In this document: positions 12,886 to 60,751 of the stretch, piece after piece
Numbering within the stretch: position 1 is the stretch's first letter
How the letters are laid out: the number at the start of each line of letters is the position of its first letter
Assembly (NCBI GenBank): GCA_965203375.1
Contig: OZ241886.1
Coordinates: 2,431,249 to 2,495,248 of the forward strand
Direction of reading: 5' to 3'
DNA length: 64,000 nt
Source: Candidatus Aldehydirespiratoraceae bacterium
GTDB lineage: Bacteria; Actinomycetota; Acidimicrobiia; Acidimicrobiales; Aldehydirespiratoraceae
Notes under the pieces: generated by a model
The model's input: the letters and a program-made list of their open reading frames with translations, nothing else
Databases searched by the model: none
What the model was told of the DNA's origin: nothing
Made by a program: the position numbers and the translations under genes

Positions 12886-13518
12886 TCACTCCCCTTCGGC
12901 CCGCCTCCTGGGCACCGGGCCCACTCGCTCCAGCACGGCCAGCAGGCCCGGAAACCCCTCGACGGACGACAGGCGGCGGTCCATGTACAACAGCGCCCCG
13001 GCGATGAGGACGAAGGAGACGACGTAGTTCACCACCGACCGGGTGGCCAAGAAGAAGCTCACCCCCGAGTTGTTGAACAGCCAGATGTCCCACACCGACG
13101 AGCCGACCTCGTAGACCACCACCAGCCAGGTGACGTTGCGCATGACGGACCTGAACCTCTGGTCGGCCAGCACCGACTCGGGCAGGTCGGCCACCTTGCG
13201 GGCCGCCCACAGCATGAAGGGCCGGCCGACGACGATGGTGGCCGCCGCGGCCAGACCGATCAGGAACTTGGTGCCTATGCCTATCCCGAAGTACACCGCC
13301 TCGGAGCTGACCCCGAAGTCCACCAGCTCCCGCTCAGCCGCGATGGTGACGGCCGCCCTGACCAGCAGATAGGCGGTTATGGCCGGCAGCCATTTCCCTA
13401 TGGGCAGGCCCCGGGCCTTCCGGCTGTAGGCCGCCTTGACCGACCATGCGGTGGCGGCCAGCACCGCCGCCTCCGTGTTCACCAGGTTGTACAAGACGAT
13501 GAACAGCACCACCGGCAT
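12886..13518 (-). CDS. hypothetical membrane protein (4-5 TM)
   Basis: start chosen at MPVVLFIVLY; upstream 144 codons of the ORF are Arg/Pro-rich and probably not coding, though a PLPEGQ-repeat extension cannot be excluded. Confidence 0.45.
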   Translation of the reverse strand: MPVVLFIVLYNLVNTEAAVLAATAWSVKAAYSRKARGLPIGKWLPAITAYLLVRAAVTIAAERELVDFGVSSEAVYFGIGIGTKFLIGLAAAATIVVGRPFMLWAARKVADLPESVLADQRFRSVMRNVTWLVVVYEVGSSVWDIWLFNNSGVSFFLATRSVVNYVVSFVLIAGALLYMDRRLSSVEGFPGLLAVLERVGPVPRRRAEGE

Positions 13519-13766
13519 GAGCTGGTCGAGGTTGCCTCCGCCCCGCCGCCGCTTGTCCGGCCGGCGGGTCCTGTCACGGGCGCGGATTTCGCCGCGGAGG
13601 CGGCGAAATCCTTGCCCCCGTGCCACCCCCCGGCCTGGCGGATCGCCCGCGGGGGATTCGCCCTCCTGGAGCTGCTGGCCCTCTGGGAGCGGCTGGTCTT
13701 CCGTCGGCGGCTGGCCTTCTGGGAGTGGCTGATCCAGCGGTGAAGAGCCTTGTGAGGGAGGGGAGC

Positions 13767-14498
13767 TCACGGGGAGAAGTTGATCCAGCTCTGGGCTGTG
13801 GCCTCGTCGCCGAACAGCTCCAGTTCGCTCACCGGCACCCGGCCCCACATGGCCAGGCACAGGGCACCGCCGGGGCCGCGCAGGGCAGCGTCGCCTTTGG
13901 CGTGAACGTGCTCGACCGAGACGGCTCCGCCCTCGCTGGTCAGCATCCACTCCCCGGGGCCGTCGGTCCGGTGCAGGTGCAGCGAGCCGGCGGGCAGGAC
14001 CCGACCCCGGGCCAGCATGGCCGGCGCCAGCACCTCGAACAGCTCGTCGATGCCGTCTGCGCCCTGATCGCCGTCGATGGCGAAGTCACGCCCGGCCGCG
14101 GCCTCGGCGTCCCAGCGGTGTACGGCCGTCTCGTGCCACAGGCGCCGGAACCAGAACGCGGCGTCGCGCCGGGCCGTCCAAGTCCACACCGCCTCGGCCG
14201 GGTCGATACCGCCGAGAGCGTCCAACAGCGCATCGAGGGCAGCAGAAGCGTACCCCATCAGAGCACCTTCGTCTGAGGCGTCAGGCGGGTTGGGAAGCTC
14301 CGAGTCCGACACCATCTCAGTGGCCCGCCGGGACATGACGACAGCGACCCGATTGTGTATCCGACCCATGTGCGCCACCAAGTCCCCGACCGTCCAGTCG
14401 CCGCAGGCGGCCACCGGCGCGTCGAGGTTGCCCCGGGCCGCCACCAGCAGCCCTCGGCCGTCGGCGGCGATGCGGCCGATCATGTCACGCTCGTTCAT
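13767..14498 (-). CDS. maleylpyruvate-isomerase-like / mycothiol-dependent enzyme family protein (DinB/YfiT fold)
   Basis: N-terminal GDWTVGDLVAHMG...H motif characteristic of the TIGR03083 family. Confidence 0.6.
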   Translation of the reverse strand: MNERDMIGRIAADGRGLLVAARGNLDAPVAACGDWTVGDLVAHMGRIHNRVAVVMSRRATEMVSDSELPNPPDASDEGALMGYASAALDALLDALGGIDPAEAVWTWTARRDAAFWFRRLWHETAVHRWDAEAAAGRDFAIDGDQGADGIDELFEVLAPAMLARGRVLPAGSLHLHRTDGPGEWMLTSEGGAVSVEHVHAKGDAALRGPGGALCLAMWGRVPVSELELFGDEATAQSWINFSP

Positions 14499-14628
14499 AC
14501 TGAAAGGGTAAGCCGATCTCGCCTAGTTCAACCGAGTCGCGGAAAGCTCAATCCCGATCGGCCCAGAGTGGTCGCCAAAACGGCGCAGACCCAGCGTGCC
14601 GCGGTCGAAGTCGGCCTACCTCTCGCGC

Positions 14629-17037
14629 TCAGCCGCCGGTCGCGTTGAGTTCGCTTTGCCATGTCTGTCCCCGATGGGTGAACTGGCCGGTGCTGATGCT
14701 GGCAATGTCGTAGTCGGGCAGCTTGACCTCCGCTGTGCATCTTCGGCCGTCGATGGATCCGCGCTCAATGAAGGCGAAGTCGAAATTGTCGAATCCGGAT
14801 TGTCGGCGGTGGTCGGGCAAATCCATTCTGTCGACTGGGAATACGTGTACGAAGAAATCGTCGCTGATATCACCGTTGTGGCATTGCTCTCGAATGTACA
14901 TCAAGGTTCTATCGCTGGTGAGATAGACATCAAAGCGGCCGCGAACAGCCGCAGTTGTGGGGAGGTTGATGACTTGATCCGCCCGTTGGTGCAACTCGGC
15001 ATTGGCTACATGGTCAGGCCCGAAGAATCTCCCACCCCAGATAGGTCCTCCACTGCTGGACTGGCCGGTGCTGATGCTGGCAATATCATAATCAGGCAGA
15101 TCAAAAATCACAACATACCGCTCGGCATCCATAATAAGCCGATCGAGCGGAGTGAAGCCGTAAGATTCGTGATCCTGGCTGGAATCCACAGGGTGGACTA
15201 TCAAATCGATAGGGCTTGACAGCAGCAGCGGATTTTCTGTGCAGCGATTCCCTATATATATGAGTTTTCTGTCATCGGTGAGGTAGACGTCAAAATCACC
15301 CCGAACCGCTGGCCTACTCCTTTCAACAATTTTGTTTATGCGTTCCTCATATGCATGCCGATCATACAGGTACATCACCTGATTGTCCGGCGTCAACAAA
15401 CCTCGAGCATCGTTTAGCTTGGGCTGAAGAATGAAATCAACTCTGTACGAATTGATGCGACAATCACGGCTATCAAATATGAGGCCACTGCCATGCAGAT
15501 AATAGAACAAGCCGTCATACGGCCAGACATAAGGATACCAGTCCCAGCCGTGGGGGTCGTATATGGGGATATCAGGGCGAGTATAGACAAGAATATTCCT
15601 TCCGTCGGTGAACGAGCGTATCATTTCAATATCATCTGCTATCAACTCTTCTATGTCCATAAACTCGGCACTAGGATCTTCAACCTCAGCATAGGCCACC
15701 CTATAGCTAGAGGTCACAAACAACACAAATGCACCCACTGCACTTAGCGGTAACAACTCTTTACCTTTGCCCGACCATTTATATAATAACGACAGAATCA
15801 AAGTATAAAAAAACAAGACCGCACCTACATAATACAAACTTTCAAATCCGTACGGATCATGTTGATGAATATTATATCGCATTGGAATTGACCAGCAGAA
15901 CCCGGAAAGAACTGCGGTCAAAGCCAGCAAACGATGACGCCTGAGATGAACCGCCCCGACTACACACACCCCGACCATGCCGATTCCCGCCAATGCAGCC
16001 TGAGGCACCGTCCGACCCGAGCCAGACCATGAACCGAATGGCAAAGCGAAAGGGATTGCCAGATACGACAATCTCTCCAACTGTGAATAAAGAAACGCAT
16101 CCCACCGTATCCTATAATCATCTGCCAGCCACTCATCCACGCTCCGCAGGTCTATTCCGGTGCGTCTCAACGCGGAGTCGACCGACGGCAGGTTTGATAA
16201 TGCTAATTGATCGCCTGCCCTAAAGTTGAGGGCATAGTATTCATTGGCGATATTGTAGGTTAATATCAATATCCCGAACCCCAGGGCAACAAACCCTAGA
16301 GTAAAATAGCGGCTAGTCATCACTCTCGATAAATAGAGTGAGAGTGAAAATCCTTGAATCGTCTTTGCCTTCTGCGCTTGGATGATCTCCTTGGCCAAGC
16401 CGAGAAGCACGAAAGGCAATAGCAACGCCAATACATGCCAGCCCAACAACAAAGCAAGACAGGCCTTAACCACTAACTGCCGAAAACGGCCATCTTGGGA
16501 GAAGATCACCATGCCATGGAAGGTAAGGGCGAACCCGAAAAGGTCGGGCATAAGTTCTGGCATTGTCGCGGTAGAATATGTCAACACTGTAGAGGATGCA
16601 AACCCCAGTAGAACTGCCGTGGAAGCAATCCATCGGTTTGAGATAAGCCGACATAGCGACCAATAGGCTAACACCACAGTACCGGCGAAGAACGCCACCA
16701 TAAGCATTTGAACCGCGGCGATACGAGTAGACAGGCCGTCACCCACAACCAAAGTGACTAACTTCATCAGCATATAGCCACCAGGAGGGAATCTATTATA
16801 TGCCACATAATCGATACCACCAGATACGTCGTAAATCTGATTAAAAAACCCCAGGAAATAGTGACTAGGGGAAAGATTGACGGCCACCGTTAAGTGCTGA
16901 TAATTCGAACGATATCCTTCGTTTAGAGTGCCAGTTATCCTGCCGAAGAAAAAAAACGTGGACAACCCGATCAACAACAAAACAAGCGGCAACGACCTCA
17001 GCCACAAGGCCGACCGATTATGACGCAAGAGAGCCAC
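14629..17037 (-). CDS. large polytopic membrane protein, paralog A (N-terminal ~10-12 TM + C-terminal duplicated soluble domain); possible GT-C-like glycosyltransferase
   Basis: low-GC gene; GTG start after GGTAGGAGA RBS; internal duplicated motifs LPDYDIASISTGQ and RG.FDVYLT.DR.L.YI; function not recognised. Confidence 0.65.
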   Translation of the reverse strand: MALLRHNRSALWLRSLPLVLLLIGLSTFFFFGRITGTLNEGYRSNYQHLTVAVNLSPSHYFLGFFNQIYDVSGGIDYVAYNRFPPGGYMLMKLVTLVVGDGLSTRIAAVQMLMVAFFAGTVVLAYWSLCRLISNRWIASTAVLLGFASSTVLTYSTATMPELMPDLFGFALTFHGMVIFSQDGRFRQLVVKACLALLLGWHVLALLLPFVLLGLAKEIIQAQKAKTIQGFSLSLYLSRVMTSRYFTLGFVALGFGILILTYNIANEYYALNFRAGDQLALSNLPSVDSALRRTGIDLRSVDEWLADDYRIRWDAFLYSQLERLSYLAIPFALPFGSWSGSGRTVPQAALAGIGMVGVCVVGAVHLRRHRLLALTAVLSGFCWSIPMRYNIHQHDPYGFESLYYVGAVLFFYTLILSLLYKWSGKGKELLPLSAVGAFVLFVTSSYRVAYAEVEDPSAEFMDIEELIADDIEMIRSFTDGRNILVYTRPDIPIYDPHGWDWYPYVWPYDGLFYYLHGSGLIFDSRDCRINSYRVDFILQPKLNDARGLLTPDNQVMYLYDRHAYEERINKIVERSRPAVRGDFDVYLTDDRKLIYIGNRCTENPLLLSSPIDLIVHPVDSSQDHESYGFTPLDRLIMDAERYVVIFDLPDYDIASISTGQSSSGGPIWGGRFFGPDHVANAELHQRADQVINLPTTAAVRGRFDVYLTSDRTLMYIREQCHNGDISDDFFVHVFPVDRMDLPDHRRQSGFDNFDFAFIERGSIDGRRCTAEVKLPDYDIASISTGQFTHRGQTWQSELNATGG

Positions 17038-17052
17038 TGATCTCCTACCTCA

Positions 17053-19500
17053 CTAGCCGCCAGTGGGGTTGAGTTCGCTGCGCCATATTTGTCCTTGATT
17101 GGTGAACTGTCCGGTGCTGATGCTGGCGATATCATAGTCGGGCAGTTCGATCTCCCCTACGCATCTTTGGCCGTCGATGGATCCGTATTCGGTGAAGGCG
17201 AAGTCGAAATTGTCGAATCCGGATTGTCGGCGATGGTCGGGCAGGTTCATTCTGTCAACTGGGAATATATGCACGAAGAAGTCGTCGCTGATATCACCGT
17301 TGTGGCATTGCTCTCGAATGTACATCAAGGTTCTATCGCTGGTGAGATAGACATCAAAGGGGCCGCGAACAGCCTCGATCCGTGAGAGACTGATGACTTG
17401 ATCCGCCCGTTGGTGCAACTCGGCATTGGCTACATGGTCGGGCCCGAAGAATCTCCCACCCCAGATAGGTCCTTCACTGCTGGACTGGCCGGTGCTGATG
17501 CTGGCAATATCATAATCGGGCAGATCAAAAATCACAACATACCGCTCGGCATCCATAATAAGTAGCTCGTGCATAGTGAAACCGTATAATTTGTAATCCT
17601 GACTGGAATCGGAGAGAACATTAGTATCCACAGGATAGACCATCAGATGAACATGATTTGACAGCAATAACGGGTTTATTGTGCAGCGATTTCCGACATA
17701 CAGGAGCTTTCGGTCATCGGTAAGATAGACATCAAAATCACCCCGAACCGCTGGCCCGATTTTTTCGACTATTTTATCTATACGTTCCTCATAAACATGC
17801 CGGTCATACAGGTACATCACCTGATTGTCCGGCGTCAACAAGCCTTGAGCGTCGTTCTGCTTAGGCTGAAGAATGAAATCCACTCTGTACGAACTGATGC
17901 GACAATCACGGCTATCAAATATAAGTCCACTGCCATGCAGATAATAGAACAACCCGCCATACGGCCAGATATAGGGATACCAATCCCAGCCGTGAGGGTC
18001 GTATATAGGGATATCAGGGCGAGTATAGACAAGAATATTCTTTCCATCACTTAACTGTCGGATAGTTTCAACATCATCTACTATCAAACTCTCTATATCA
18101 ATAAAAGCTTTGTCATTAGGACGCTCGATTTCAGCATAGGCTACCTTGTAGCTGGAGGTCACAAACAACACAAATGCACCTACTGCACTTAGCGGTAACA
18201 ACTTTTTACCTTTGCCCGACCATTTATATAATAACGACAGAATCAAGGTATAGAAAACCAAAATTACACCTATATAGTACAAACTCTCAAAAAAGTGCGG
18301 GCCAGTATTGTATCGCATAGGAATCGACCAGCAAAACCCGGAAAGAACCGCGGTCAGAACCAACAGACGATGACGCCTGAGGTGAACCGCCCCGATCACA
18401 CATACCCCGATCATGCTGATTCCCGCCGATGCAGCCCAAGGTATTGTTTTAACCAAGACCGTCCTATCCAAGCTAGACCATGAACCGAACGGCAAGGCAA
18501 AGGGAATCGCCAAGTACGACAATCTCTCCAACTGCGAATAAAGAAAAATATACCACTGCACCTGATATTCGCTGCTCAGCCATCTCCCTATTTCATCCGG
18601 GTTCCCTATGTCTGTTCCGGTGCGTCTCAACGCGGAGTCGATCGATGGCATATCTGATAATGCCAATTGATCGCCCGCCCTAAAGTTGAGGGCATAGTAT
18701 TCATTGGCGATATTGTAAGTTAATATCAATATCCCGAACCCCAGGGTAACAAACCCCAAGGTGAAATAGCGACTAGTCACCGCTCTCGATAAATAGAGTG
18801 ACAATGAGAATCCTTGAATCGTCTTTACCTTCCGAGCTTGGATGATTTCCTTAGTCAAGCCGAGAAGTACGAAAGGCAAGAGCAACGCCAATACATGCCA
18901 ACCCAACAACAAAGCAAGACATGCCTTAACAACCAACTGCCGGAAACGACCATCCTGAACGAAAATCACCATGCCATGAAAGGTGAGCGAAAACCCGAAA
19001 AGGTCGGGCATGATTTCCGGTATCGTCGCGGTAGAATATATCAACACCGTAGAGGATGAGAACCCCAACAAAACTGCCGTCGAAGCAATCCACCGGTTTG
19101 AGATAAGCCGACATAGCGACCAATAGGCCAACACCGCGGTTCCAGCGAAGAACGCCACCATAAGCATTTGAACAGCCGCGACACGAATAGACAAGCCATC
19201 ACCTACAACCAAAGTGATCAACTTCATCAGCATATAGCCACCAGGAGGAAATTTATTGTAGGCCGCATAATCGATACTACCAGATACGTCATAAACCTGA
19301 TTCAGGAACCCCAGGAAATGGTGACTGGGAGAAAGATTGATCGCCGCTGCCATATGTTGATGAGAAAGAAAATAGTTTTCGTTTAGGGTGCCAGTTATCC
19401 TGCCGAATAAAAAAATCGTGGACAACCCGATCAACAACAAGATGAGCGGCAACAACCTCAGCCTCGAAGCCAACCGACCTTGACCTAACGGAGCCACCAA
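17053..19500 (-). CDS. large polytopic membrane protein, paralog B (same architecture as A)
   Basis: TTG start after GGTAGGGGA RBS; same TM and C-terminal motif layout as A, with near-identical nucleotides over the 3'-terminal ~450 bp. Confidence 0.65.
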   Translation of the reverse strand: MVAPLGQGRLASRLRLLPLILLLIGLSTIFLFGRITGTLNENYFLSHQHMAAAINLSPSHHFLGFLNQVYDVSGSIDYAAYNKFPPGGYMLMKLITLVVGDGLSIRVAAVQMLMVAFFAGTAVLAYWSLCRLISNRWIASTAVLLGFSSSTVLIYSTATIPEIMPDLFGFSLTFHGMVIFVQDGRFRQLVVKACLALLLGWHVLALLLPFVLLGLTKEIIQARKVKTIQGFSLSLYLSRAVTSRYFTLGFVTLGFGILILTYNIANEYYALNFRAGDQLALSDMPSIDSALRRTGTDIGNPDEIGRWLSSEYQVQWYIFLYSQLERLSYLAIPFALPFGSWSSLDRTVLVKTIPWAASAGISMIGVCVIGAVHLRRHRLLVLTAVLSGFCWSIPMRYNTGPHFFESLYYIGVILVFYTLILSLLYKWSGKGKKLLPLSAVGAFVLFVTSSYKVAYAEIERPNDKAFIDIESLIVDDVETIRQLSDGKNILVYTRPDIPIYDPHGWDWYPYIWPYGGLFYYLHGSGLIFDSRDCRISSYRVDFILQPKQNDAQGLLTPDNQVMYLYDRHVYEERIDKIVEKIGPAVRGDFDVYLTDDRKLLYVGNRCTINPLLLSNHVHLMVYPVDTNVLSDSSQDYKLYGFTMHELLIMDAERYVVIFDLPDYDIASISTGQSSSEGPIWGGRFFGPDHVANAELHQRADQVISLSRIEAVRGPFDVYLTSDRTLMYIREQCHNGDISDDFFVHIFPVDRMNLPDHRRQSGFDNFDFAFTEYGSIDGQRCVGEIELPDYDIASISTGQFTNQGQIWRSELNPTGG

Positions 19501-19541
19501 TCCCCTACCTCACTGCCTTCCCCATAGGCCAGGTCCGGCTC

Positions 19542-20078
19542 TCAACTCAGACGGTCGCGGAGTTGTGCCACCAAGTGGCGCAGATCCTGCGCGCATCGGT
19601 CGAAGTCGGCCTGCTCCCCGGCACCCGGGTCGGCCACCTCCTCCCACGGCTCGGGCCGGACCCCGGCCAAGTCCAGCGCCGCGACCCGCTCCGCCAGCGT
19701 TGAAGGGCGGGCCGGCTCGGGTCGGGGCAGGTCCCGGGCCAGCCTCCGCAGCGATCCGACGACGGCCGCCGCAGCCGGGAAACGGGATCGAATCCACGAT
19801 AGGTGGGCCGGCTCCATGACCGCGATGAGGTCGGCGCCAGCCTCGCCATCCGAGAACTGCCGGGACCGGTGGCCGGGGTCGGCCAAGCCGCAGCCGGCCA
19901 GAGCCGTCCGGGTCCTCACCCCCATGGGCTGGCCCTCCACCACATGGGTGCCGGCGCTTAGCACCTCCAGATCCGGCGCCAGGGCCCGCAGCATGGCCGC
20001 GGCCATGACCGAGCGGGCCGCGTTGCCGGTGCAGACGAAGCACACCACCGGCCTCTCCGGGGCCGAATCCGGGCTCAC
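19542..20078 (-). CDS. low-molecular-weight phosphatase family protein (LMW-PTP/ArsC-like)
   Basis: P-loop VCFVCTGNAARS (CX4-AR-S); 41 bp upstream of paralog B on the same strand. Confidence 0.75.
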   Translation of the reverse strand: MSPDSAPERPVVCFVCTGNAARSVMAAAMLRALAPDLEVLSAGTHVVEGQPMGVRTRTALAGCGLADPGHRSRQFSDGEAGADLIAVMEPAHLSWIRSRFPAAAAVVGSLRRLARDLPRPEPARPSTLAERVAALDLAGVRPEPWEEVADPGAGEQADFDRCAQDLRHLVAQLRDRLS

Positions 20079-20138
20079 CGCGGAAGCCGTCCTAACGGGG
20101 CCGAGCCCGCGGGCATCGACGTCGGGGCCGGACCGGAC

Positions 20139-20924
20139 TCACGGGCGGGAGCGGAAGTCGGCTTTGCGGGCCCCGCCGGGGTCGATCACCGACCGGATCA
20201 AACCGATCTCGGCTTCGGTGGGAAGCCGGCTGACGGGCACCTCGTCGGGCACGGCCAGCTCGAAGGGGGCGGCGGCCGCCGCCTGGTCGACGGTGACGCC
20301 GGGGTGGACCGAGCGCAGGCGCATCCCCCGATCGGGAGTCTCGAAGTCGTAGACGCCCAGATCGGTCACCACCCGGCGCACCTCATGGAAGCGCCGACTC
20401 GGCTCGGCCAAGGCCGCCACCCGGTCATACCCCGGCCCCGACACCACGTCCACCGAGGCCGCGAAGGCGCGGGGCTGGTTGGGCACCCAGTAGCTAACGG
20501 TGTGGTTGATGACGTTGCCCGGAGCGCCCCTCATGCCCAGCAACTGGGCTTTGGGTCTCCGGTAGTCGCCGATGGCGGCGATGTTCTGGTTGCCGTGCCG
20601 GTCGATCTGGCTGGCCCCCATCACCACGTGGCGGCGCCCCGACCACACCTGGTCGAACACGGTGCGGAAGGGCATGTAGCCCTCCACCGCGGCCAAGTCG
20701 GGCTCGGCCCCCCACGGCAGGGTTCCGGTGACGGCGTAGGCGATGGTGTCGGTGAGCATCAGGTCGGGCTCGAAGCTGGCCCGGGCCAGCCGGCCCGCGA
20801 TCACCGGCACCGGCCCCATGGGATGGGCCAGGATCTCGCCGTCGCCCCGGAAGGCCTCGGCCAGCGCCACCACGCAGATCTCGTCCAGGGTGGCGGCCAC
20901 ATCGCCGGCCGCGGAAGGGCTCAC
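20139..20924 (-). CDS. CoA-transferase family I, subunit B
   Basis: SQIDRHGNQN motif; GTG start overlaps subunit A stop (GTGA). Confidence 0.8.
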   Translation of the reverse strand: MSPSAAGDVAATLDEICVVALAEAFRGDGEILAHPMGPVPVIAGRLARASFEPDLMLTDTIAYAVTGTLPWGAEPDLAAVEGYMPFRTVFDQVWSGRRHVVMGASQIDRHGNQNIAAIGDYRRPKAQLLGMRGAPGNVINHTVSYWVPNQPRAFAASVDVVSGPGYDRVAALAEPSRRFHEVRRVVTDLGVYDFETPDRGMRLRSVHPGVTVDQAAAAAPFELAVPDEVPVSRLPTEAEIGLIRSVIDPGGARKADFRSRP

Positions 20925-34617: not shown

Positions 34618-35844
34618 GTGACAATGGGGGGAGGAGCCATCGGTGCCCAGATCCGGGGGCTGAGGGAGGCTGTGGGTTGCGAGCGATCGGCTCTGGCTGA
34701 GGCGCTGGGGCTCGATCCCGCCGAGATGGCGGAGATGGAGTTCGGCCGCCGGGCTGTCCGGGCGGAGGATGTCGCGGCCGCTGCTGAGTTCTTGGGCGTC
34801 TCACAACTGGCGATCCTGCAGCCGGGGTCGCTGCTCGGACGGCTCGCGGTGGCTGCCCGCACGAACGGTCACGGTGAACCGGACCGGGGGGCGGTGATGC
34901 GCCTGACGGCTCTGGCGGAACTGAGCCATGTGCTGACCCAAGGCGGCCACCCCCCTCCTCTTGCCCCGTCCGGCACCGACGGGGCACCTGAGGGTAAGCC
35001 GGGCCAGTCGTGGCTGAGCCGCGCTCGCGACCTGGCCGAATGGGCCGTCGGGCAGTTCGGCTCAGGTTGGAGGCAGGGCCACCCGCTGCCCGATCTGGCC
35101 GAAGCCATAGAGGACAGCCTGAGCGTTGATGTGATGGTGGAGGGCCTCGGCGGCACCGGGGCGCCGCTAGGCGTTTCCATAACCGACGCGGATTTCCCCT
35201 TCATCATGGTCAACGCCGATCAGCCCACCCCTCGGGCGCTGTTCTCCCTGGCCCACGAGTTGGGCCACGTTTTGAGCCGAGACGGCTACGCGCTGCGAAT
35301 CGACAACCACTTTCGGGCGCCCAACGACAGCGAACGGGCAGCCAACGCCTTCGCCGCCAGCCTGCTGATGCCCGAGGACGACGTGCGCCGCACCGTCGCC
35401 CAGCACGGTCGCACTGCCGAGTCTTTGGCCCGGATGCTCATTGACTTCGGTGTGAGCTATGAGTCGCTCATCTACCGGTTGCACAATCTGAGACTCATCA
35501 ACGCCAACGGCCGAGACCGTCTCAAAGCCGTGGGCTGGGCTGGCCTCATGAACGCCGTCAACGACGCCGGTGTCACCAAAGCGTTGCTCTCTGCTCGGGG
35601 CACTCGACCGGCGCGACGGCCTCCCATCCTGCTGGCGAGGCGATGTCTGCGCGGAGCGCTGGACGGAACGGTGAGCGCGGCCCCGCTGGCAAGGCTGCTC
35701 AACGCCGACATCGACGAAATAATCGACAAGATCGACTCGATAGGACCTGAATCCGCTGCCGCGATCAACGATAACTACTCGTCGCCACCCGATCCTGACG
35801 ATGTCGCCCACTCGGCTTTAGACGACGATCCCTTAGCCGTGTAG
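34618..35844 (+). CDS. XRE-family HTH fused to ImmA/IrrE-family zinc metallopeptidase
   Basis: HTH region IRGLREAVGCERSALAEALGL...; HEXXH as LAHELGHVL. Confidence 0.8.
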   Translation: MTMGGGAIGAQIRGLREAVGCERSALAEALGLDPAEMAEMEFGRRAVRAEDVAAAAEFLGVSQLAILQPGSLLGRLAVAARTNGHGEPDRGAVMRLTALAELSHVLTQGGHPPPLAPSGTDGAPEGKPGQSWLSRARDLAEWAVGQFGSGWRQGHPLPDLAEAIEDSLSVDVMVEGLGGTGAPLGVSITDADFPFIMVNADQPTPRALFSLAHELGHVLSRDGYALRIDNHFRAPNDSERAANAFAASLLMPEDDVRRTVAQHGRTAESLARMLIDFGVSYESLIYRLHNLRLINANGRDRLKAVGWAGLMNAVNDAGVTKALLSARGTRPARRPPILLARRCLRGALDGTVSAAPLARLLNADIDEIIDKIDSIGPESAAAINDNYSSPPDPDDVAHSALDDDPLAV

Positions 35845-35860
35845 GCCCGATCGGGCTTCG

Positions 35861-36424
35861 GTGGCGACGATGAAACCGGTGCTGCACGACGCGGTCACCT
35901 TGCGCCACTTTGCCGCTGTATCTAGAATCGATATTCTAGAAGCCCGGCACGGACAACGGCCGCCGCCTCTGTGGGCAGAAGCCGTGCATGAAGAAATACG
36001 ATCTGGCGTGGAAGCGGGCAACGCATACTGTTCTGATGTGCTTGAAGCCTCATGGCTTGGGAACCCTGCGCCTGTGCAAGAAGCCGACTTAGAGCCTATC
36101 TTCTTCTTACAGGTGGGCATAAATCAAGGTATCTATCCTCCCGATATGAAGCGTAACCGAGGAGAGGCAGAAAGCATCTATTTTGCTGAAAGACACGACG
36201 GACAATTCGCCACTGACGACAACGCGGCTTACAAGTTCGCCTGTCGGCGGCCTTCACTCGGCCCTGGCAGAGTGATCGACTCCATCGACATCTTAAGAAC
36301 CGCCGTCGCCCTAGGAGAGATCACCGCGACTGACGCCTTCACCGTCGCTGAAAACATAGAAGCAGAAGGGCGATTCTTCCGACCAGAACATCGCATCCCC
36401 AGAAAACCCAGCTACTTCACCTAA
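35861..36424 (+). CDS. hypothetical protein, possible PIN-like nuclease partner of ImmA/IrrE (DUF4411-like)
   Basis: 17 bp downstream of the ImmA/IrrE gene; low GC; N-terminal VLHDAVTLRHF strand and later acidic residues are compatible with a PIN fold; fold assignment is inference. Confidence 0.5.
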   Translation: MATMKPVLHDAVTLRHFAAVSRIDILEARHGQRPPPLWAEAVHEEIRSGVEAGNAYCSDVLEASWLGNPAPVQEADLEPIFFLQVGINQGIYPPDMKRNRGEAESIYFAERHDGQFATDDNAAYKFACRRPSLGPGRVIDSIDILRTAVALGEITATDAFTVAENIEAEGRFFRPEHRIPRKPSYFT

Positions 36425-37377
36425 GAGCATGCGCGGATTGCTCAGGGGTTTGGGTTCCAGCGGTTGCGGTGGTTGATGAGTTTGGCGGTGAGGATGCAGG
36501 CGATGGCGAGGGCGAGTTGGGCTCGTCGGTGGTGGGGACGGCGGTCGGTGTTGCGTCGGAGTTGCCCGAAGTTCGACAGCCATGAGTTGGTGCGTTCGAT
36601 GCTCCAGCGCCGGCCGAGGGGCACGGGCCGGGGCCCGGCGGCGCCTGGGGAGCGTCTTTGGGGGCAGGCGACGTCGGCGATGCCCGCGTCGGCGCACAGG
36701 CGGCGCGCAGTGGCGCTGTCATAGCCGCGGTCTAGGTGCAGGGTCTCGATGCCCTGGAGCAGTCCCCGCCGGCCGGCGGCTCGCAGGGTGGGTTCCAGCA
36801 GGGTCAGGTCACAGCGGTTGGCGCCGTCGAGCGCGGCTACGGCCGGTATGCCCCAACGGTCGGTCAAAAGCGACCACTTGAACCCGAGTTTGCCCCTGTC
36901 AACAGGGCTTTTGCCGGTTCCTTCGCCTCCGCAGGGGGCCTTGTGGATTGACCCGTCGATGCAGGCTTCGGTCAGGTCCAGCCCCACGATGCGGTCATAG
37001 GCCTCGACGGCTTCGTCTTCGAGGTCCTCGAACACCCCCGCGGCGATCCATTCGTCGCGGCGGGCCCGCATGGTGGTGTCAGACACCCGGCCCCCCAACA
37101 GCTTCTCCGCGGTGACCCATGAGCAGCCGGTGACCAGCCGGGTGAGCATCCCCCAAAAACAGATCCGGTCCGGGATCCGCGGCCTGTGCCCCCGGGTTGA
37201 GGGTCTCTGTGCCCGGACCGGGACCCGGGACTTGATCGCGGCCCACACCGCATCCACCACCTCAGGAACCAACGCGCGCATGATGTAGCCGGCCTCCACG
37301 GTCGTCTTGTTGCTGACACCCCGACATACAAGCCGGGACAACCAGACGACCCGTGGATGGTCAATCCGCGCGCGCTC
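36425..37377. mobile_element. IS5-family insertion sequence (IS1031-like), intact
   Basis: 16-bp terminal inverted repeats GAGCATGCGCGGATTG / CAATCCGCGCGCGCTC with 14/16 matches; 3-bp TAA direct repeats at 36422-36424 and 37378-37380. Confidence 0.8.
36442..37281 (-). CDS. IS5-family DDE transposase
   Basis: HLDRGYDS and RWSIERTNSWL motifs; ~280 aa single ORF. Confidence 0.8.
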   Translation of the reverse strand: MRALVPEVVDAVWAAIKSRVPVRAQRPSTRGHRPRIPDRICFWGMLTRLVTGCSWVTAEKLLGGRVSDTTMRARRDEWIAAGVFEDLEDEAVEAYDRIVGLDLTEACIDGSIHKAPCGGEGTGKSPVDRGKLGFKWSLLTDRWGIPAVAALDGANRCDLTLLEPTLRAAGRRGLLQGIETLHLDRGYDSATARRLCADAGIADVACPQRRSPGAAGPRPVPLGRRWSIERTNSWLSNFGQLRRNTDRRPHHRRAQLALAIACILTAKLINHRNRWNPNP

Positions 37378-37752
37378 TAAGCCGGGCGACATCGTGCTGC
37401 CGCAGAAGGCGGAAGCAGTAGCCGTGGATCGTGCCCACGAACAGGCCCCCGATCCGTGAGATGGCCACCTCGGTGCTTGACAGCGGCCAGTGCGTCGCCC
37501 TCCAGGGTTGGCACGTCCATCCGCTCATTGTGCCGGGAGGATGCTCTACCCGCCGCAGCCTCAAAGATTTTTCCGAACGGGCGTTGTGACTGTCACAGGG
37601 GTCTGATACATTGTCGCTACCGGTCGTGGAACCTCGCAGGCGGAATCGTCAGCGGGTTCCGGCGCTTCCCCGGACCGGTGAAATCGCCAGCGCAGGCCGG
37701 CCCCAGGACCGACCCGGCTCCTTCGGGAGTTGGGCTTGCGAGGAAGCGCAAC

Positions 37753-39090
37753 ATGTTCGAAGCATTCAAGACCTTCATCGACACACTGAACGGCTCCGAT
37801 GTGGGGGCCTTGGACCGGGCCGGGCTGGACGAAGCCGCCGGCTGGACCAAGCGGGCCCGCTCGGCCCTCGACGCCTACGAAGCCCGGCTGCTGACCGCCG
37901 CCAACCGGGCCTTCGACGGCGGCGCGGCCGGCGCCGAACTGATGCGAACCGCCGCCGGATGCTCCCAGCGCGAGGCCCGCCGCCGGGCCCGCCGAGCCGA
38001 AACCCTGGCCGACATGCCCGCCGTGGCCCAAGCCCTGTCGGATGGCGCCATCACCGCCGAACACGCCGACGCGTTGGTGAAGGCCGCCGAGGCCACCTCG
38101 ACAGCGGCGGTGGACGCCGACCCGTCCCTGCTGGCCAAGGCCGAGTCGCTGCCCGCCGATTTGGCCGCCCGAGAGGTCGCGGATTGGGCTCACCGCCGCC
38201 AATCCGAACAAGACCGCGAAGCCAAGCTCCGCCGCCAGCGGGCGCTGCGCAGCCACCGAACCTGGATCGACGCCGACGGCATGTTCAACACCAGAGGCCG
38301 CTTCGACCCCGTCACCGGCGCCAGCATCCGAGCCGTCATCGACGACACCGCCAACCGCCTCTACCGAACCGACGGAGGCCGAGACGGCGGCAACAAAATC
38401 CGCACCTGGGACCAGCGCAACGCCGACGCCCTAGCCGCCGCCCTAGGAGTGATCCCCACCCCCGTGACAGGACCCGCCGGCCGGGACAACCCGCAACCCG
38501 CCAGCCGAGATGAACACCAACTTGCCATCACGAACCGGCACGGCCCCAGCCTGCGCAACCAGATCCTCGTCATCGCCCACACCGACGCCATCACCGGCGC
38601 CGACCCCGACGCCCCCTGCGAAATCCCCGGAACCGGCCCCATACCCCGCTCTGAACTCGAACGGCTTGCCTGCGAGTCGGAATTGTTCGGAATCCTCTTC
38701 GACGGCCGCGGCCTGCCCCTATGGCACGGACGACGAACCCGAACCGTCACCCCCCAGCAATGGCGAACCCTGGTAGCCCGAGACCGCGGCTGCGTCCTCT
38801 GCGGCACCAACCCCTCCTACTGCCACGCCCACCACATCGTGCCATGGACCGCCCCCGCCGAAGGCCCCACCGACATCGACAACCTCGTGCTGGTCTGCAA
38901 CCGGCACCACCACCACATCCACCAACACCACCTCACCCTCACCCGCCACCCCGACGGCCACTGGACAACGGCCGACTCCAGCCACCGAAAACCCGCCCAC
39001 AGCAACCACCACAACAACGGCACGAGACCGGCTAGCCGCGACCACACTCCGGCAGCCAAGCCGCCAACCGGTATCAGAGCCGGACCATGA
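37753..39090 (+). CDS. DUF222 + HNH endonuclease (REP13E12-family-like)
   Basis: N-terminal DUF222-like region; C-terminal HNH (CVLCGTNPSYCHAHHIVPW...DNLVLVCNRHH). Confidence 0.8.
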   Translation: MFEAFKTFIDTLNGSDVGALDRAGLDEAAGWTKRARSALDAYEARLLTAANRAFDGGAAGAELMRTAAGCSQREARRRARRAETLADMPAVAQALSDGAITAEHADALVKAAEATSTAAVDADPSLLAKAESLPADLAAREVADWAHRRQSEQDREAKLRRQRALRSHRTWIDADGMFNTRGRFDPVTGASIRAVIDDTANRLYRTDGGRDGGNKIRTWDQRNADALAAALGVIPTPVTGPAGRDNPQPASRDEHQLAITNRHGPSLRNQILVIAHTDAITGADPDAPCEIPGTGPIPRSELERLACESELFGILFDGRGLPLWHGRRTRTVTPQQWRTLVARDRGCVLCGTNPSYCHAHHIVPWTAPAEGPTDIDNLVLVCNRHHHHIHQHHLTLTRHPDGHWTTADSSHRKPAHSNHHNNGTRPASRDHTPAAKPPTGIRAGP

Positions 39091-54938: not shown

Positions 54939-56206
54939 CCGGACCCGGCACCCTCAACCACGTCGACACCGAAGCCGACTCGGCTGCCCTTGACCGCGGA
55001 GACAGCAGGGCCGACCCGACCGCCTTCCACCGCGCCGACGCCGGAGCCGACCCGGTCGCCTTCGATCACGTCGACGTCGGGGGCAAGCGCAGCCCCCACA
55101 ACGCCAAGTGGTCCCAATACGGCCCCGACGTTCTGCCGGCCTGGGTGGCCGAGCACGACTTCCGCCAGCCCGACTCGGTGATAGAGGCCATGCGGGCCAC
55201 GATCGACCGGGGCGAGCTGGGCTATCACCGCCGCGACTCTGAGGTGGCCGAGGCCTTCGGGGGCTGGGCCCGGTCCCGCTACGGCTGGGACCCCGACCCG
55301 GCGCTGGCCGCGGTGTGCGTGGACGCCCTCCAGGGCGTCGTCGCCGCGGTCACCGCACTGGCCGGCCCCGGCGAGGGGGTGATCCTGACGCCGCCCGTCT
55401 ACCACGTGTTCTGGCAGATCTGCCCCACCTCGGGGCGGCGGCCGGTGGAGTGGCCGATGCGGCAAGGCCCCGGCGGATGGCGCCTCGACCCCGACGACCT
55501 CGAAGCGGTGGCCGCGGCCGACCCCGGCGCCAAGGTGCTGTTGCTGTCGCACCCCCAGAACCCCACCGGCCGGGTGGCCGACCGAGACACCCTGGCCCGC
55601 ATCGTCGAGGTGGCCCGCGATCGCGGCCTCTACGTCGTGTCCGACGAGATTCACGGCGACATGGTGTACCCCCCGGCCGAATTCGTGCCCATGCTGTCGC
55701 TGGACGGCGCCGCCGACCGGGTGATAACCGTGACCTCGCCGGCCAAGACCTTCGCCCTGTCGGGGCTGCGCTGCGCCCTAACCGTCTTCGGCTGCCCGGA
55801 GCTGCGCCGCCGGGTGATCGAGGCCCACCCTCCCCTGCTGCTGGGCCACGCCTCCCGGACGGGCATCGACGCCTCGGTGGCGGCCTGGACCGAGGGCGGG
55901 GCCTGGGCCGACCGGCTGCTCGACCAGCTCCGGGCGAACCGCGACCATCTGGCCCGGCGGCTGGCGGCCGAGGCCCCGGCGGTGCGGATGCACCTGCCGG
56001 AGTCGACGTTTCTGGCCTGGCTGGACGTGTCGGCCTGCGGCCTGGGCCACCGGCCCGCCGCCGCCCTGCTGGAGCGGGCCCGGGTGGCGCTGCTGGAGGG
56101 AACCGAGTTCGGGACCGGCGGCGAAGGCTGCGTGCGGCTCAACTTCGGGACGTCTGAGGCGCTGCTAGACGCCATAATAGACCGGCTCATCCCCCATCTG
56201 CGATGA
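54935..56206 (+). CDS. MalY/PatB-family PLP-dependent C-S lyase / aminotransferase
   Basis: FDHVDVGGKRSPHNAKW (PatB-type N-terminus), PLP-lysine context; start uncertain, GTG 54935 is the only nearby candidate. Confidence 0.75.
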   Translation: MTGPGTLNHVDTEADSAALDRGDSRADPTAFHRADAGADPVAFDHVDVGGKRSPHNAKWSQYGPDVLPAWVAEHDFRQPDSVIEAMRATIDRGELGYHRRDSEVAEAFGGWARSRYGWDPDPALAAVCVDALQGVVAAVTALAGPGEGVILTPPVYHVFWQICPTSGRRPVEWPMRQGPGGWRLDPDDLEAVAAADPGAKVLLLSHPQNPTGRVADRDTLARIVEVARDRGLYVVSDEIHGDMVYPPAEFVPMLSLDGAADRVITVTSPAKTFALSGLRCALTVFGCPELRRRVIEAHPPLLLGHASRTGIDASVAAWTEGGAWADRLLDQLRANRDHLARRLAAEAPAVRMHLPESTFLAWLDVSACGLGHRPAAALLERARVALLEGTEFGTGGEGCVRLNFGTSEALLDAIIDRLIPHLR

Positions 56207-58341
56207 CCGACCACCAGGGCCGTAGGTTCGAAATGCTCTTGCAGCGGTGTCCGTGGCTGGCTTGCGCGCTGTTTGTGGGAGTCGCGCTCGTCCATAACGA
56301 TACCCCCACCCCGCAGGATACAGTCTGGACCGCCCAAGCGACGACACCGGCCGAGACGACGGTGCAAGACTCGGCTAGATTATTAGGATCTATTGCCCCA
56401 GTTGAGGACGATCAAGGTTCGGATAAGGGCTCGATAGTTTTGTCATGGCCTAATCTTGGTGATACTTCAATCACTCATTATCAGTATAGATTCAGGAGTG
56501 CATCAAAGGCAGGGTACGGTCCGTGGATAGATGTTCCCTTCAACTATGAGACCACCACTGTAAATACCATCACCAACCTTAAAACGGATATGGCCTATCA
56601 TATACGATATCGAGCCTGCAGGCCGACCAAATGCGGAATTGCGAGAGTTAAATGGCATGTAAGAGCTTGCAACACGGGCGAATGTAAAGCTAAAAAGCTT
56701 CAAATAAGGGTTCCAGTGTTTCCGTCGGATGTTCCCCCTCCACCTGGTTTCTGGTTCTTAGACGATGACGGCAGTATCCACGAGGGCGCCATTGAGGCAC
56801 TCGCGGCCGTGGGCGTCGCCCGAGGGTGCCGATACGACCTCTATTGCCCCGATGAGGAGGTGACCCGCGGCCAGTTCGCCGCGCTATTGGCGCGGGCCTT
56901 TCCCGGCTTGGTCCCCGACGACGCCGACGACTTCTTCGGCGACGACGACGGCAGCGTCCACGAGGCCGCCGTCAACGGCCTCGCCGCTGCGGGGATCGCG
57001 AGCGGCTGCGGGCCGGGCCGTTACTGCCCCGCCGAACCGATGACCCGAGCCCAGATGGCGACACTGCTGGCCCGGGCCCTCCCCGGTTTGGCTTCCCCCG
57101 ACCGGGATCATTTCTCCGATGACGACGGGACCGTCCATGAGGTCGCCATCAACGCGTTGGCCGAAAACGGCATCGTCTCCGGCTGCGGACCGGGCCGGTA
57201 CTGCCCCGACGATCCGATGCGGCGCGATCAGGCGGCGACGCTGCTGGCCCGGGCACTGGACCTGAAGCCGACCCAGCCTGAGCCGAGCCCGTGGCGGCTC
57301 GAGCCGGTGGCCGACGGCATCGACGGCGGCCCCACCGACCTCCAAGCCCCAGACGGCGACGACCGCTTGTTCCTGGCAACCAAACAGGGGGCGATCCTCA
57401 TAATCGCCGACGGCGCCCTATTGACCGAACCGTTTCTTGACTTGACCAGCGAAGTCATGTCCGCGGGCGGCGAACAAGGTCTGCTCGGGATGGCATTCCA
57501 CCCCCACTACGACACCAGCTTCAGGTTCTATGTCTTTTATACCGACTTAGACGGCCATAGCCAAATATATGAGTACCGGACCGACCCCGAGAACCCGAAC
57601 CAGGCCGACGCTTCCACCGCCCGTCACATCATCACCATCGAACAGACCAACGCTATACATATGGGCGGACAGCTTCAATTCGGCGCTGACGGCTACCTAT
57701 ACATAGCCGTCGGTGACGACCTGCTCTCTAACAACGGACAGAACCCCAGAACAGCGCCGGGAACCATCCTCCGCATAGATATAGACGACGTCGACTCCTA
57801 CTCGATTCCTGCCGACAACCCCTTCGCCGACGGCCAAGAAGGTCTACCCGAAGTCTGGGCCTACGGGCTGCGTAACCCCTGGCGATTCAGCTTCGACGGC
57901 TCCAACATCTACATCGCTGATGTAGGGCATAATGAACGAGAGGAAATCAACATCGTCGACACCTCAAGGGGTGGAATAAACTACGGCTGGCCCATCGTGG
58001 GTGATACCCAATGCATCAACTCAAACTCGAACTGCGCCGGACTGTTCACCCCTCAAATCGAATACTACCGCAACGATGGGTTTGCCGTCATCGGCGGCTA
58101 CGTATATCGAGGCACCGCCATAGGTGAGATGACCGGCCGATACTTCTACTCCGACATCAGCGGCCGATGGATCCGCACCTTCGCCTACCAAGACGGCGAG
58201 ATCACCGAGCACTATGACTGGTCCCAGGCGATCGAAGATCTCGGGCAGGTGTGGTCATTCGGCAAAGACGGCCACGGAGAGCTCTACGTGCTGACCAGCG
58301 ACGCCGTCTACAAGATCGCCCCCGCTAGCCTCAACCCATGA
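56203..58341 (+). CDS. surface protein paralog 1: TM/signal + FN3 + 3 SLH-like repeats + PQQ-type soluble sugar dehydrogenase beta-propeller
   Basis: ATG overlaps aminotransferase stop (ATGA); SLH-like FSDDDGS.HE.AI..LA..GI..GC....YCP....TR.Q.A.LLARA x3; propeller motifs GLLGMAFHP, GGQLQFGADGYLY, GLRNPWRFSFD, GGINYGWP. Confidence 0.75.
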   Translation: MTDHQGRRFEMLLQRCPWLACALFVGVALVHNDTPTPQDTVWTAQATTPAETTVQDSARLLGSIAPVEDDQGSDKGSIVLSWPNLGDTSITHYQYRFRSASKAGYGPWIDVPFNYETTTVNTITNLKTDMAYHIRYRACRPTKCGIARVKWHVRACNTGECKAKKLQIRVPVFPSDVPPPPGFWFLDDDGSIHEGAIEALAAVGVARGCRYDLYCPDEEVTRGQFAALLARAFPGLVPDDADDFFGDDDGSVHEAAVNGLAAAGIASGCGPGRYCPAEPMTRAQMATLLARALPGLASPDRDHFSDDDGTVHEVAINALAENGIVSGCGPGRYCPDDPMRRDQAATLLARALDLKPTQPEPSPWRLEPVADGIDGGPTDLQAPDGDDRLFLATKQGAILIIADGALLTEPFLDLTSEVMSAGGEQGLLGMAFHPHYDTSFRFYVFYTDLDGHSQIYEYRTDPENPNQADASTARHIITIEQTNAIHMGGQLQFGADGYLYIAVGDDLLSNNGQNPRTAPGTILRIDIDDVDSYSIPADNPFADGQEGLPEVWAYGLRNPWRFSFDGSNIYIADVGHNEREEINIVDTSRGGINYGWPIVGDTQCINSNSNCAGLFTPQIEYYRNDGFAVIGGYVYRGTAIGEMTGRYFYSDISGRWIRTFAYQDGEITEHYDWSQAIEDLGQVWSFGKDGHGELYVLTSDAVYKIAPASLNP

Positions 58342-60719: not shown

Positions 60720-60751
60720 CCTCCGATCAACCTGCTCATCCCCCACCTGCA

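Follow-up and report, generated by a model that had tools for sequence, protein, structure and literature searches.

Two adjacent minus-strand genes in the window (the whole stretch of 64,000 nucleotides that was analysed) represent a new, previously unnamed GT-C family that probably diversifies surface glycans. Each gene encodes a polytopic protein of the cytoplasmic membrane with the GT-C glycosyltransferase fold. On the outer side of this membrane, the enzyme would remove a sugar from a donor linked to polyprenyl phosphate and pass it to an extracytoplasmic acceptor, which is most likely a glycan of the cell surface but may be a surface protein. Two C-terminal beta-sandwich modules located outside the cell would bind or position this acceptor. 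The mechanism is proposed by analogy with every characterised enzyme of the GT-C fold, and the biological role is likely to be surface-glycan variation, similar to that provided by the type-specific Gtr glucosyltransferases in enterobacterial O-antigen modification. We hold this reading of the two proteins, termed FamA and FamB, with moderate confidence. The relevant features of the region are as follows.

13767..14498, minus strand: MDMPI-family (mycothiol-dependent isomerase-like) gene of high GC content (Pfam and synteny)
14530..14620, minus strand: decayed 3' copy of the LMWPc gene (last ~70 nt plus downstream spacer), directly after the FamA stop (repeat search and alignment)
14629..17037, minus strand: FamA, open reading frame of 802 aa, with predicted GT-C-fold membrane domain, alpha/beta domain and two beta-sandwich modules
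17041..17051, minus strand: Shine-Dalgarno-like GAGGTAGGAGA, preceding the GTG start of FamA by 3 nt (read from the sequence)
17053..19497, minus strand: FamB, 814 aa, tandem paralogue of FamA (815 aa if the TTG at 19500 is used as start)
19501..19511, minus strand: Shine-Dalgarno-like GAGGTAGGGGA, preceding the GTG start of FamB by 3 nt (read from the sequence)
19542..20078, minus strand: LMWPc (low-molecular-weight phosphatase) gene of high GC content, upstream boundary of the island (Pfam and synteny)

An earlier note on this DNA had described a low-GC island containing a compositionally foreign pair of tandem paralogues, and these descriptions are borne out. In 1-kb windows, GC drops sharply to 0.47, 0.49, 0.50, and 0.45 between 15 and 19 kb, compared to 0.69-0.77 in the flanks, while 200-nt windows place the island edges at ~14.6 kb and ~19.5 kb; over this span (14.6-19.5 kb), the island has a GC of ~0.47-0.49 against ~0.72 in the flanks. 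Similarly, GC3 is 0.55 and 0.54 in FamA and FamB, as opposed to 0.82-0.97 in nine flanking genes. No integrase, transposase, or tRNA is present at the island borders (Pfam annotation and tRNA scan), and neither Rfam nor tRNA scans yielded any feature in the region. FamA and FamB share 81% amino acid identity over 792 aa, with a dS of 0.44 and an overall dN/dS of 0.22, which indicates that both genes have been maintained. The ratio is ~0.1 in the TM core and peaks in two outer loops (EL1 and EL4) and module 1.

Both open reading frames reported previously (14629-17037 and 17053-19500) exist, and only the start of the upstream gene requires revision. FamB most likely begins at GTG 19497 (814 aa) rather than at TTG 19500, because this start is preceded by the same ribosome binding site and spacer as that of FamA (GAGGTAGG(A/G)GA followed by 3 nt) and opens with the same GTGGCTC, and because the public gene call for the upstream gene in this genome is also 814 aa long. 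Judging from the sequence, the Shine-Dalgarno-like element at 19501..19511 has been duplicated along with the gene. Only 15 nt separate the stop of FamB from the start of FamA, which makes co-transcription of the two genes probable. Assembly chimerism is unlikely, given that the same or very similar arrangements recur in independent assemblies.

In the structure model, FamA consists of a helical membrane domain (~residues 8-477; 11 predicted TM segments, N-terminus in) and a beta-rich domain (481-798), the latter comprising an alpha/beta domain (481-573) and two novel beta-sandwich modules (~575-672 and 695-798) that align with each other at 38% identity (E 5e-20). This arrangement agrees with the earlier proposal of many TM helices followed by a hydrophilic part built from a duplicated module, and both motifs quoted for this module occur exactly twice in each protein. 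The modelled membrane domain displays the GT-C helical architecture, with Pmt4, Pmt2, AglB, STT3, and PglB among its best structural matches, and the predicted topology combines a cytoplasmic N-terminus, a long first outer loop, and an extracytoplasmic soluble domain, as in GT-C enzymes. Across 79 family members, the density of K+R is 0.16-0.40 in predicted cytoplasmic loops and 0-0.08 in predicted outer loops. Following this topology, the two C-terminal modules would be extracytoplasmic; the C-terminal domain carries a net charge of -25 and three invariant cysteines (Cys599, Cys719, and Cys767). A BFVD viral fold search provided no informative match.

The previous guess of a GT-C-like enzyme stands at the level of fold, whereas it finds no counterpart in a named sequence family. 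Pfam returned no match for either protein at E up to 1, and Pfam, NCBIfam, and PADLOC scans produced nothing usable; matches to VirE1, DesA, and DUF2953 were far below the cut-offs and were rejected. A single marginal PHROGs match (E 0.009) pointed to a family of uncharacterised function, and a PDB profile search yielded chance-level matches only, such as glutaconate CoA-transferase at E 0.09. There was no significant profile match to ArnT, PMT_2, or PMT (PF13231, PF02366; GT83, GT39), and hhalign comparison of the 79-sequence family profile with E. coli ArnT gave a non-significant probability of 0.2%. For STT3, PglB, and AglB (PF02516; GT66), neither a Pfam nor a PDB sequence match nor a conserved WWDYG was detected, and the window proteins have no match to GtrII (PF14264) and no gtrA/gtrB neighbours. 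Taken together, Pfam, hhalign against ArnT, and the PDB profile search gave no connection at the sequence level with any characterised GT-C family.

In many GT-C enzymes, the catalytic Asp is located in the first outer loop. Among 148 divergent representatives of the family, no conserved acidic residue was found in EL1; D70 is 87% conserved in a close alignment, but only 36% among these representatives, and was rejected as the catalytic residue. Acidic conservation falls on D156 in EL2 (94%) and on E266 where EL4 begins (98%), and R82, P84, H174, W200 (100%), and R292 are likewise conserved on the outer face. Both window proteins contain Thr at position 156 in place of the Asp found in 94% of the family; at this site, they and the relatives nearest to them (P0002-P0006) carry Thr, Ala, or Val, and at positions 97-98 they have VV instead of the conserved PF. 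Because of these replacements, the catalytic competence of the window proteins and P0002-P0006 is uncertain. We nevertheless consider it rather unlikely that FamA and FamB are pseudoenzymes with a GT-C fold or do something other than glycosyl transfer, for example bind lipid-linked substrates, support a catalytic paralogue as its scaffold or partner subunit, or act as a surface receptor using the beta-sandwich modules. Purifying selection acts most strongly on the TM core (omega ~0.1), the window proteins retain the other conserved outer-face residues (R82, P84, E161, D165, H174, W200, H201, E266, and R292), and a second sub-clade lacking D156 has gained D199, which resembles active-site remodelling rather than decay.

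The acceptor could also be a protein, with FamA and FamB acting as active GT-C enzymes in a PMT- or oligosaccharyltransferase-like glycosylation of secreted or surface proteins. The prominence of Pmt4, Pmt2, AglB, STT3, and PglB among the structural matches would be consistent with this scenario, as would the presence of the family in both diderms and monoderms, which implies a generic acceptor, and a tandem trio of fn3+SLH surface proteins in the window might serve as substrates. We find a protein acceptor quite improbable, since Pfam detected no MIR-type or WWDYG-type acceptor-peptide domain in the window proteins and the C-terminal module is common to GtrII-like cores and a sub-threshold SGNH/AlgX-like match, i.e. 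families acting on polysaccharides. The sequence GWDWYPY (496-502) was considered as a WWDYG equivalent and rejected, as it is modelled with low confidence and varies across the family; in the family consensus, conservation is also missing from the region that follows the last TM segment. The module also occurs in fusions with a GtrII core that is significant in Pfam, with weak PMT_2 cores, and with a GDSL/AlgX-type SGNH match that is weak and below threshold, in all cases C-terminal to the TM segments, and a GtrII-family protein carrying the same C-terminal module is present in a related locus. From these fusions, we infer that the module may be an accessory of surface-polysaccharide modifiers.

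The family comprises ~2,850 clusters at 50% identity, has 458 confirmed loci in species-representative genomes, and is found in MAGs of many phyla from diderm and monoderm lineages. Tandem arrays reach seven genes, and two genomes contain ~22 and ~16 copies. In most cases (89 vs. 18), the nearest relative of a paralogue resides in its own genome, and pairs from different phyla are up to 80% identical; evolution of the family proceeds by birth and death in tandem arrays, with movement between phyla. No conserved partner gene emerged from 142 immediate neighbours. The commonest neighbour is GT2 (5/142), as would be expected if a common polyprenyl-phosphate-sugar pool was used, and one copy in Dehalococcoidia adjoins both Bac_transf and GT2. 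Together with the outer-face conservation of R82, K92, and R292, the GT2 neighbours hint at a polyprenyl-phosphate- or polyprenyl-diphosphate-linked sugar donor. A phage-borne, gtr-like origin is unsupported, with no relatives found among GenBank phages, IMG/VR, or PLSDB plasmids.

The earlier note had also interpreted the pair as horizontally acquired, potentially defence-related cargo. A recently acquired, strain-specific island with defence-related or other accessory functions would account for the strongly deviant GC and GC3, for the short direct repeat flanking the pair, and for the mobility that the family clearly displays between phyla elsewhere. This interpretation is largely refuted, and we regard it as very improbable, because at least five other related Acidimicrobiales assemblies contain equally AT-rich copies of the same clade at the same hotspot, beside MDMPI/LMWPc/CoA-transferase, with 1, 2, 4, at least 4-5, and 1 copies, respectively. 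The hotspot is occupied in all six related assemblies examined, and in the tree its copies group into one clade, with orthologues by position and duplications within single genomes. The flanking proteins of these assemblies share 80-91% identity (71-74% for DUF2339), and across this 10-20% divergence of flanking proteins the hotspot copies have a GC3 of 0.38-0.55 compared to ~0.9. The array is an old resident of one chromosomal hotspot in this Acidimicrobiales lineage, AT-rich throughout, and the island is not a recent insertion. Thus, the foreign composition and the cross-phylum mobility of the family stand, whereas strain-specific recent acquisition does not.

The borders of the island point in the same direction. 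In every related genome examined, the MDMPI-family gene is conserved as the boundary on the downstream side of the hotspot, and the LMWPc gene is located downstream of the array or absent in the relatives. The segment at 14530..14620 forms a direct repeat with 19577-19612 (36 nt, 86%) and was identified as an LMWPc remnant by aligning it to the 3' ends of LMWPc in the window and in L002 and L078; it is the scar of an array rearrangement relative to LMWPc, and was rejected as the att site of a known element. The locus is present in all six related assemblies instead of being patchily distributed. Likewise, neither protein matched any PADLOC-DB defence family at E up to 0.01, leaving a defence-related function unsupported.

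Several known systems invite comparison with the surface-glycan transferase that we propose. ArnT (GT83) and the PMT/PMT_2 protein O-mannosyltransferases (GT39) have no detectable sequence homology to the family, which differs from them in lacking a conserved Asp/Glu in the first loop, in its predicted 11 rather than 13 TM segments, in a C-terminal domain made of two novel beta-sandwich modules, and in its massive paralogy. In contrast to STT3/PglB/AglB (GT66), the family lacks a conserved WWDYG as well as a Pfam match to STT3, and the gene is located outside any pgl/agl-type glycan assembly cluster. A functional parallel might be the Gtr glucosyltransferases of Shigella and Salmonella (GtrII, PF14264), which, as we suppose for FamA and FamB, are stand-alone, highly divergent, polytopic membrane transferases modifying an existing surface glycan from a shared polyprenyl-phosphate-sugar pool. 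Clusters of gtr genes typically have a lower GC content than their host and are horizontally exchanged; the window pair is similarly low in GC and its family horizontally exchanged, and the module shared with a GtrII-family protein of a related locus provides a further likeness. However, the window proteins lack a PF14264 match and adjacent gtrA/gtrB-like genes. While gtrA-gtrB-gtr(type) clusters often reside on a prophage, no phage association is seen here, and the family reaches far higher copy numbers. Low-GC O-antigen and capsule loci are also persistently AT-rich and hypervariable, differ in copy number or content, encode surface-glycan functions of the kind proposed here for the array, and are located between conserved housekeeping flanks in related genomes. 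Unlike these loci, the array contains only paralogues of one gene family, and no nucleotide-sugar genes, flippase, or polymerase.

If correct, this reading would extend the GT-C glycosyltransferases by a new branch, formed by a sizeable protein family without name or model, which accounts for thousands of clusters at 50% identity and hundreds of species-representative loci. It would also define a new extracytoplasmic module common to several classes of surface-glycan modifiers. Given ~20 copies per genome, birth-and-death arrays, and near-identical copies across phyla, the family is a candidate route to surface variation in uncultured, probably host-associated bacteria. A broader scenario, which we consider conceivable and put forward tentatively, is that of a community-wide, horizontally shared surface-glycan toolkit of a host-associated consortium, probably in marine sponges. 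Arrays of up to ~20 GT-C paralogues per genome, each remodelled in its outer loops and active site, could then generate variable glycan patterns on symbionts, allowing host recognition or evasion of phages or phagocytosis, and the module would be a common acceptor-binding unit of several unrelated membrane enzymes. The proposed sponge association is based on the list of host taxa, a sponge data note with overlapping phyla, and a contig name resembling those of metaMDBG, the assembler used in that data note.

As part of the same scenario, the Acidimicrobiales array might be held at a GC3 of ~0.4 against ~0.9 by a locus-specific mutational or selective regime rather than by recent transfer. The hotspot also offers a clean natural case to ask why some loci remain far from genomic GC for long periods. 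Terminator-like sites are not in excess within the island, and promoter-like matches are, at the level expected of AT-rich DNA.

FamA and FamB are present as the two tandem minus-strand open reading frames that the earlier note had described:

14629-17037, minus strand: FamA, 802 aa
17053-19497, minus strand: FamB, tandem paralogue of FamA

The two proteins are 81% identical across 792 residues, and the two motifs singled out previously each occur exactly twice in each of them. The internal duplication of the C-terminal module also held up, its two copies aligning with 38% identity (E 5e-20). The start of FamB is corrected here. Given that GAGGTAGG(A/G)GA, three bases and GTGGCTC stand 5' of both genes, FamB most likely begins at GTG 19497 (814 aa), and the public gene call of this genome agrees with this length. 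Comparison of the two genes by the Nei-Gojobori method yielded a dS of 0.44, a dN of 0.095 and a dN/dS of 0.22; the duplication is not a very recent one, and selection maintains both copies.

Neither protein matched a Pfam or NCBIfam model at E-values up to 1, and the only PHROGs match was marginal (E 0.009) and to a family whose function is unknown. No PDB entry was found with a 79-homologue profile, and 0 of 349 homologues from a collection of 5.8 billion proteins carry a Pfam domain or a name. A PADLOC scan of both proteins likewise found no match, and the proposal of defence-related cargo was not borne out. With the 79-sequence alignment as input, AlphaFold2 gave a model (mean pLDDT 85, pTM 0.81) in which a helical membrane domain (8-477) is followed by a small alpha/beta domain (481-573) and a pair of beta-sandwiches; a Foldseek search with this model retrieved GT-C-fold families. 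The initial guess of a GT-C-like glycosyltransferase is thus supported by the predicted model at the level of the fold, but not at the level of sequence, where Pfam and PDB offer no match. Eleven TM helices were assigned from the helices of the model, and the assignment was tested across the 79-member alignment. Every predicted cytoplasmic loop is net positive, with a K/R density of 0.16-0.40, whereas every predicted outside loop has a density of 0-0.08; the C-terminal 350 residues carry a net charge of -25 and three invariant cysteines. Together, these features predict that the N-terminus is inside and the beta-sandwich domain outside. The same orientation, N-terminus in and soluble domain out, is found in ArnT, PglB and the PMTs. 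FamA and FamB most likely belong to polyprenyl-phosphate-sugar-dependent transferases modifying a surface glycan or glycoprotein, for which tandem paralogues would supply differing specificities. They represent a new, unnamed family with a new accessory module inside a known superfamily.

Among 148 divergent representatives, the best-conserved positions of the membrane domain are R82, P84, R130, D156, H174, K191, W200, E266 and R292. R82 and P84 lie at the end of the first outer loop, D156 (94%) in the second outer loop and E266 (98%) at the start of the large outer loop, while W200 is invariant (100%). Unlike the usual GT-C pattern, the first outer loop contains no acidic residue conserved among these representatives, D70 reaching 36%. 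In FamA, FamB and their nearest relatives, D156 is replaced by Thr, Ala or Val, and the conserved P97-F98 by VV. With D156 replaced, catalysis by FamA and FamB should not be taken for granted, and the missing Asp156 is the main uncertainty for both. Another Acidimicrobiales sub-clade lacks D156 and D165 and has gained D199 beside the invariant W200, which looks like active-site remodelling among paralogues. At outer-face positions 97-98, 156, 165 and 199 (FamA numbering, alignment A1), the Acidimicrobiales paralogues show at least three variants:

Canonical variant: PF...NDM...D165...G199
'NTT' variant: T156, G165, D199
Window variant: VV97-98, T156, D165, G199

More than one variant can occur on a single contig, as in a 15,016-bp contig encoding both P0016 and P0021, two homologous proteins.

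The C-terminal module of about 115 residues has no Pfam model and is also attached to proteins outside the family in related loci, always after TM segments:

L036, 11878-13896, minus strand: module carrier
L024, 11195-13570, plus strand: module carrier
L047, 2839-5775, minus strand: module carrier
L021, 14402-16093, minus strand: module carrier

Similarity is limited to the module (hhalign probability 100% and 99.8%). One carrier has a Pfam-significant GtrII core (PF14264, 34 bits vs a cut-off of 30), two match PMT_2 weakly, another, with a single TM segment, matches GDSL/AlgX-type SGNH families weakly and below threshold, and several are unassigned proteins of 7-13 TM segments. Within the family, the number of modules ranges from none (proteins of ~550-600 aa) to 10 matched stretches (1,851 aa). 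GtrII and AlgX-type enzymes modify extracytoplasmic polysaccharides, so the module most plausibly binds or positions the acceptor in surface-glycan modifiers.

When 1.84 billion representatives were scanned in full with HMMER, 2,850 clusters matched with E-values no higher than 1e-3, and 1,179 with E-values no higher than 1e-30; scanning a single genome per species confirmed at least 458 loci. Hosts among the matches listed, all MAGs, include Dehalococcoidia and other Chloroflexota, Binatia, Nitrospirales, Latescibacterota, Gammaproteobacteria (including Ca. Azotimanducaceae), Bryobacterales, Ca. Marinacidobacterium and Acidimicrobiales. The genes typically stand in tandem arrays of as many as seven: four loci (L005, L011, L037 and L019) contain head-to-tail arrays of 6-7 family genes, and adjacent reading frames in L005 and L011 overlap by ~40 nt. 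Among the loci fetched, ~22 copies come from a Binatia chromosome (OZ241979.1) and ~16 from a Dehalococcoidia chromosome (OZ251484.1); both counts are lower bounds, and the loci may overlap slightly. In most cases the closest copy is a paralogue from the same genome (89 vs 18). Proteins from different phyla can nevertheless be close, with 80% identity between Gammaproteobacteria OY282354.1 and Latescibacteria OY282352.1, and 75% between Dehalococcoidia OY282458.1 and gammaproteobacterial copies (comparisons L021:11975-14335 vs L025:7929-10211, and L018 vs L021). These identities show that the family has been transferred between phyla, and imply that such transfer was recent, possibly inside one community. 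No conserved partner gene was found among 142 immediate neighbours, GT2 being the commonest (5/142), and phage, IMG/VR and plasmid records contained no relative of the family. The host taxa overlap the phyla given in a sponge data note for a high-microbial-abundance sponge, and the name of the source contig, ctg22244_238x_c, resembles what we take to be output of metaMDBG, the assembler of that data note. The family may therefore be associated with sponges.

The pattern of family expansion and the persistent compositional anomaly are both striking. The low-GC island noticed at first reading is real: in 1-kb windows GC is 0.45-0.50 at 15-19 kb vs 0.69-0.77 elsewhere in the window, and 200-nt windows place sharp edges at ~14.6 kb and ~19.5 kb. 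The drop extends to codon usage, beyond amino-acid content alone, with GC3 values of 0.55 and 0.54 for the two island genes vs 0.82-0.97 for nine flanking genes. Counting both strands, the region 13500-20500 also contains 12 sigma-70-like promoter matches vs 4.3 +/- 2.2 in shuffles, several of them antisense and intragenic, an excess typical of AT-rich DNA within a GC-rich genome.

The earlier note saw in the pair a strong candidate for horizontally acquired cargo; recent acquisition is not supported, the site being occupied in related genomes. The window shares synteny with at least five further Acidimicrobiales assemblies; in a comparison of the window, L002 and L078, identity is 80-91% for flanking proteins and 71-74% for DUF2339, whereas family proteins are only 47-63% identical between genomes. 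Family genes number 1, 4, 2, at least 4-5 and 1 in these five assemblies and adjoin MDMPI, LMWPc or CoA-transferase genes. Three further related actinobacterial contigs (L083-L085) have a low-GC family copy (10001-12388 of L083) at a second site, flanked by GDPD-TatA-TatC and by a signal peptidase (S26) gene that lies downstream of a Pup-proteasome/PafBC cluster. A neighbour-joining tree groups all Acidimicrobiales copies into a single clade with a long stem, in which positional orthologues (L078_3/L081_1 and L078_4/L081_2) occur beside genome-specific duplications (the window pair; four L082 copies). Every Acidimicrobiales copy measured is AT-rich (GC 0.40-0.49, GC3 0.38-0.55; genome GC 0.70-0.73), whereas in most other phyla family genes match host GC, with differences of 0 to -0.10. 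Given this synteny, the single clade and the shared AT-richness, the array is a long-standing, fast-evolving resident of the lineage that has retained a foreign composition, rather than recent cargo, and resembles low-GC O-antigen loci. Among the possible reasons for its AT-richness are that a hypervariable locus escapes GC-biased processes linked to recombination, that expression or silencing is under selection, or that copies are repeatedly replaced from an unsampled pool.

The flanks are ordinary actinobacterial genes of high GC on the strand of the pair:

On one side: two CoA-transferase subunits and LMWPc, a low-molecular-weight phosphatase
On the other side: an MDMPI-family gene and a DUF2339 membrane protein
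Farther out: a DUF3516 helicase and an SDR

The island borders contain no integrase, transposase, tRNA or Rfam element. The last ~70 nt of LMWPc are present twice: the gene's intact 3' end lies upstream of the pair (19577-19612), and in direct repeat with it, on the other side of the pair directly after the FamA stop, lies a decayed, frameshifted remnant (14530-14620), which includes the spacer downstream of LMWPc. In related genomes LMWPc is downstream of the array, or absent altogether (L081). We interpret the repeat as the scar of a rearrangement at this locus, such as the duplication of a unit of array and LMWPc with later deletions, rather than as the att site of an element. A mobile-type gene patch of reduced GC (0.62-0.69) at 34618-39090, 15 kb from the island and with no obvious link to it, contains an HTH and Peptidase_M78 (ImmA/IrrE-like) gene, an IS4/5-family transposase (36442-37392, minus strand) and a DUF222-HNH endonuclease. 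A second stretch of lower GC (0.56-0.66), at 56203-62868 on the plus strand, encodes three tandem paralogues of 712, 793 and 653 aa. All three combine an S-layer-homology domain with a glucose/sorbosone dehydrogenase beta-propeller, and fn3 is present in two; the stretch is another surface-protein array within the same 64 kb.
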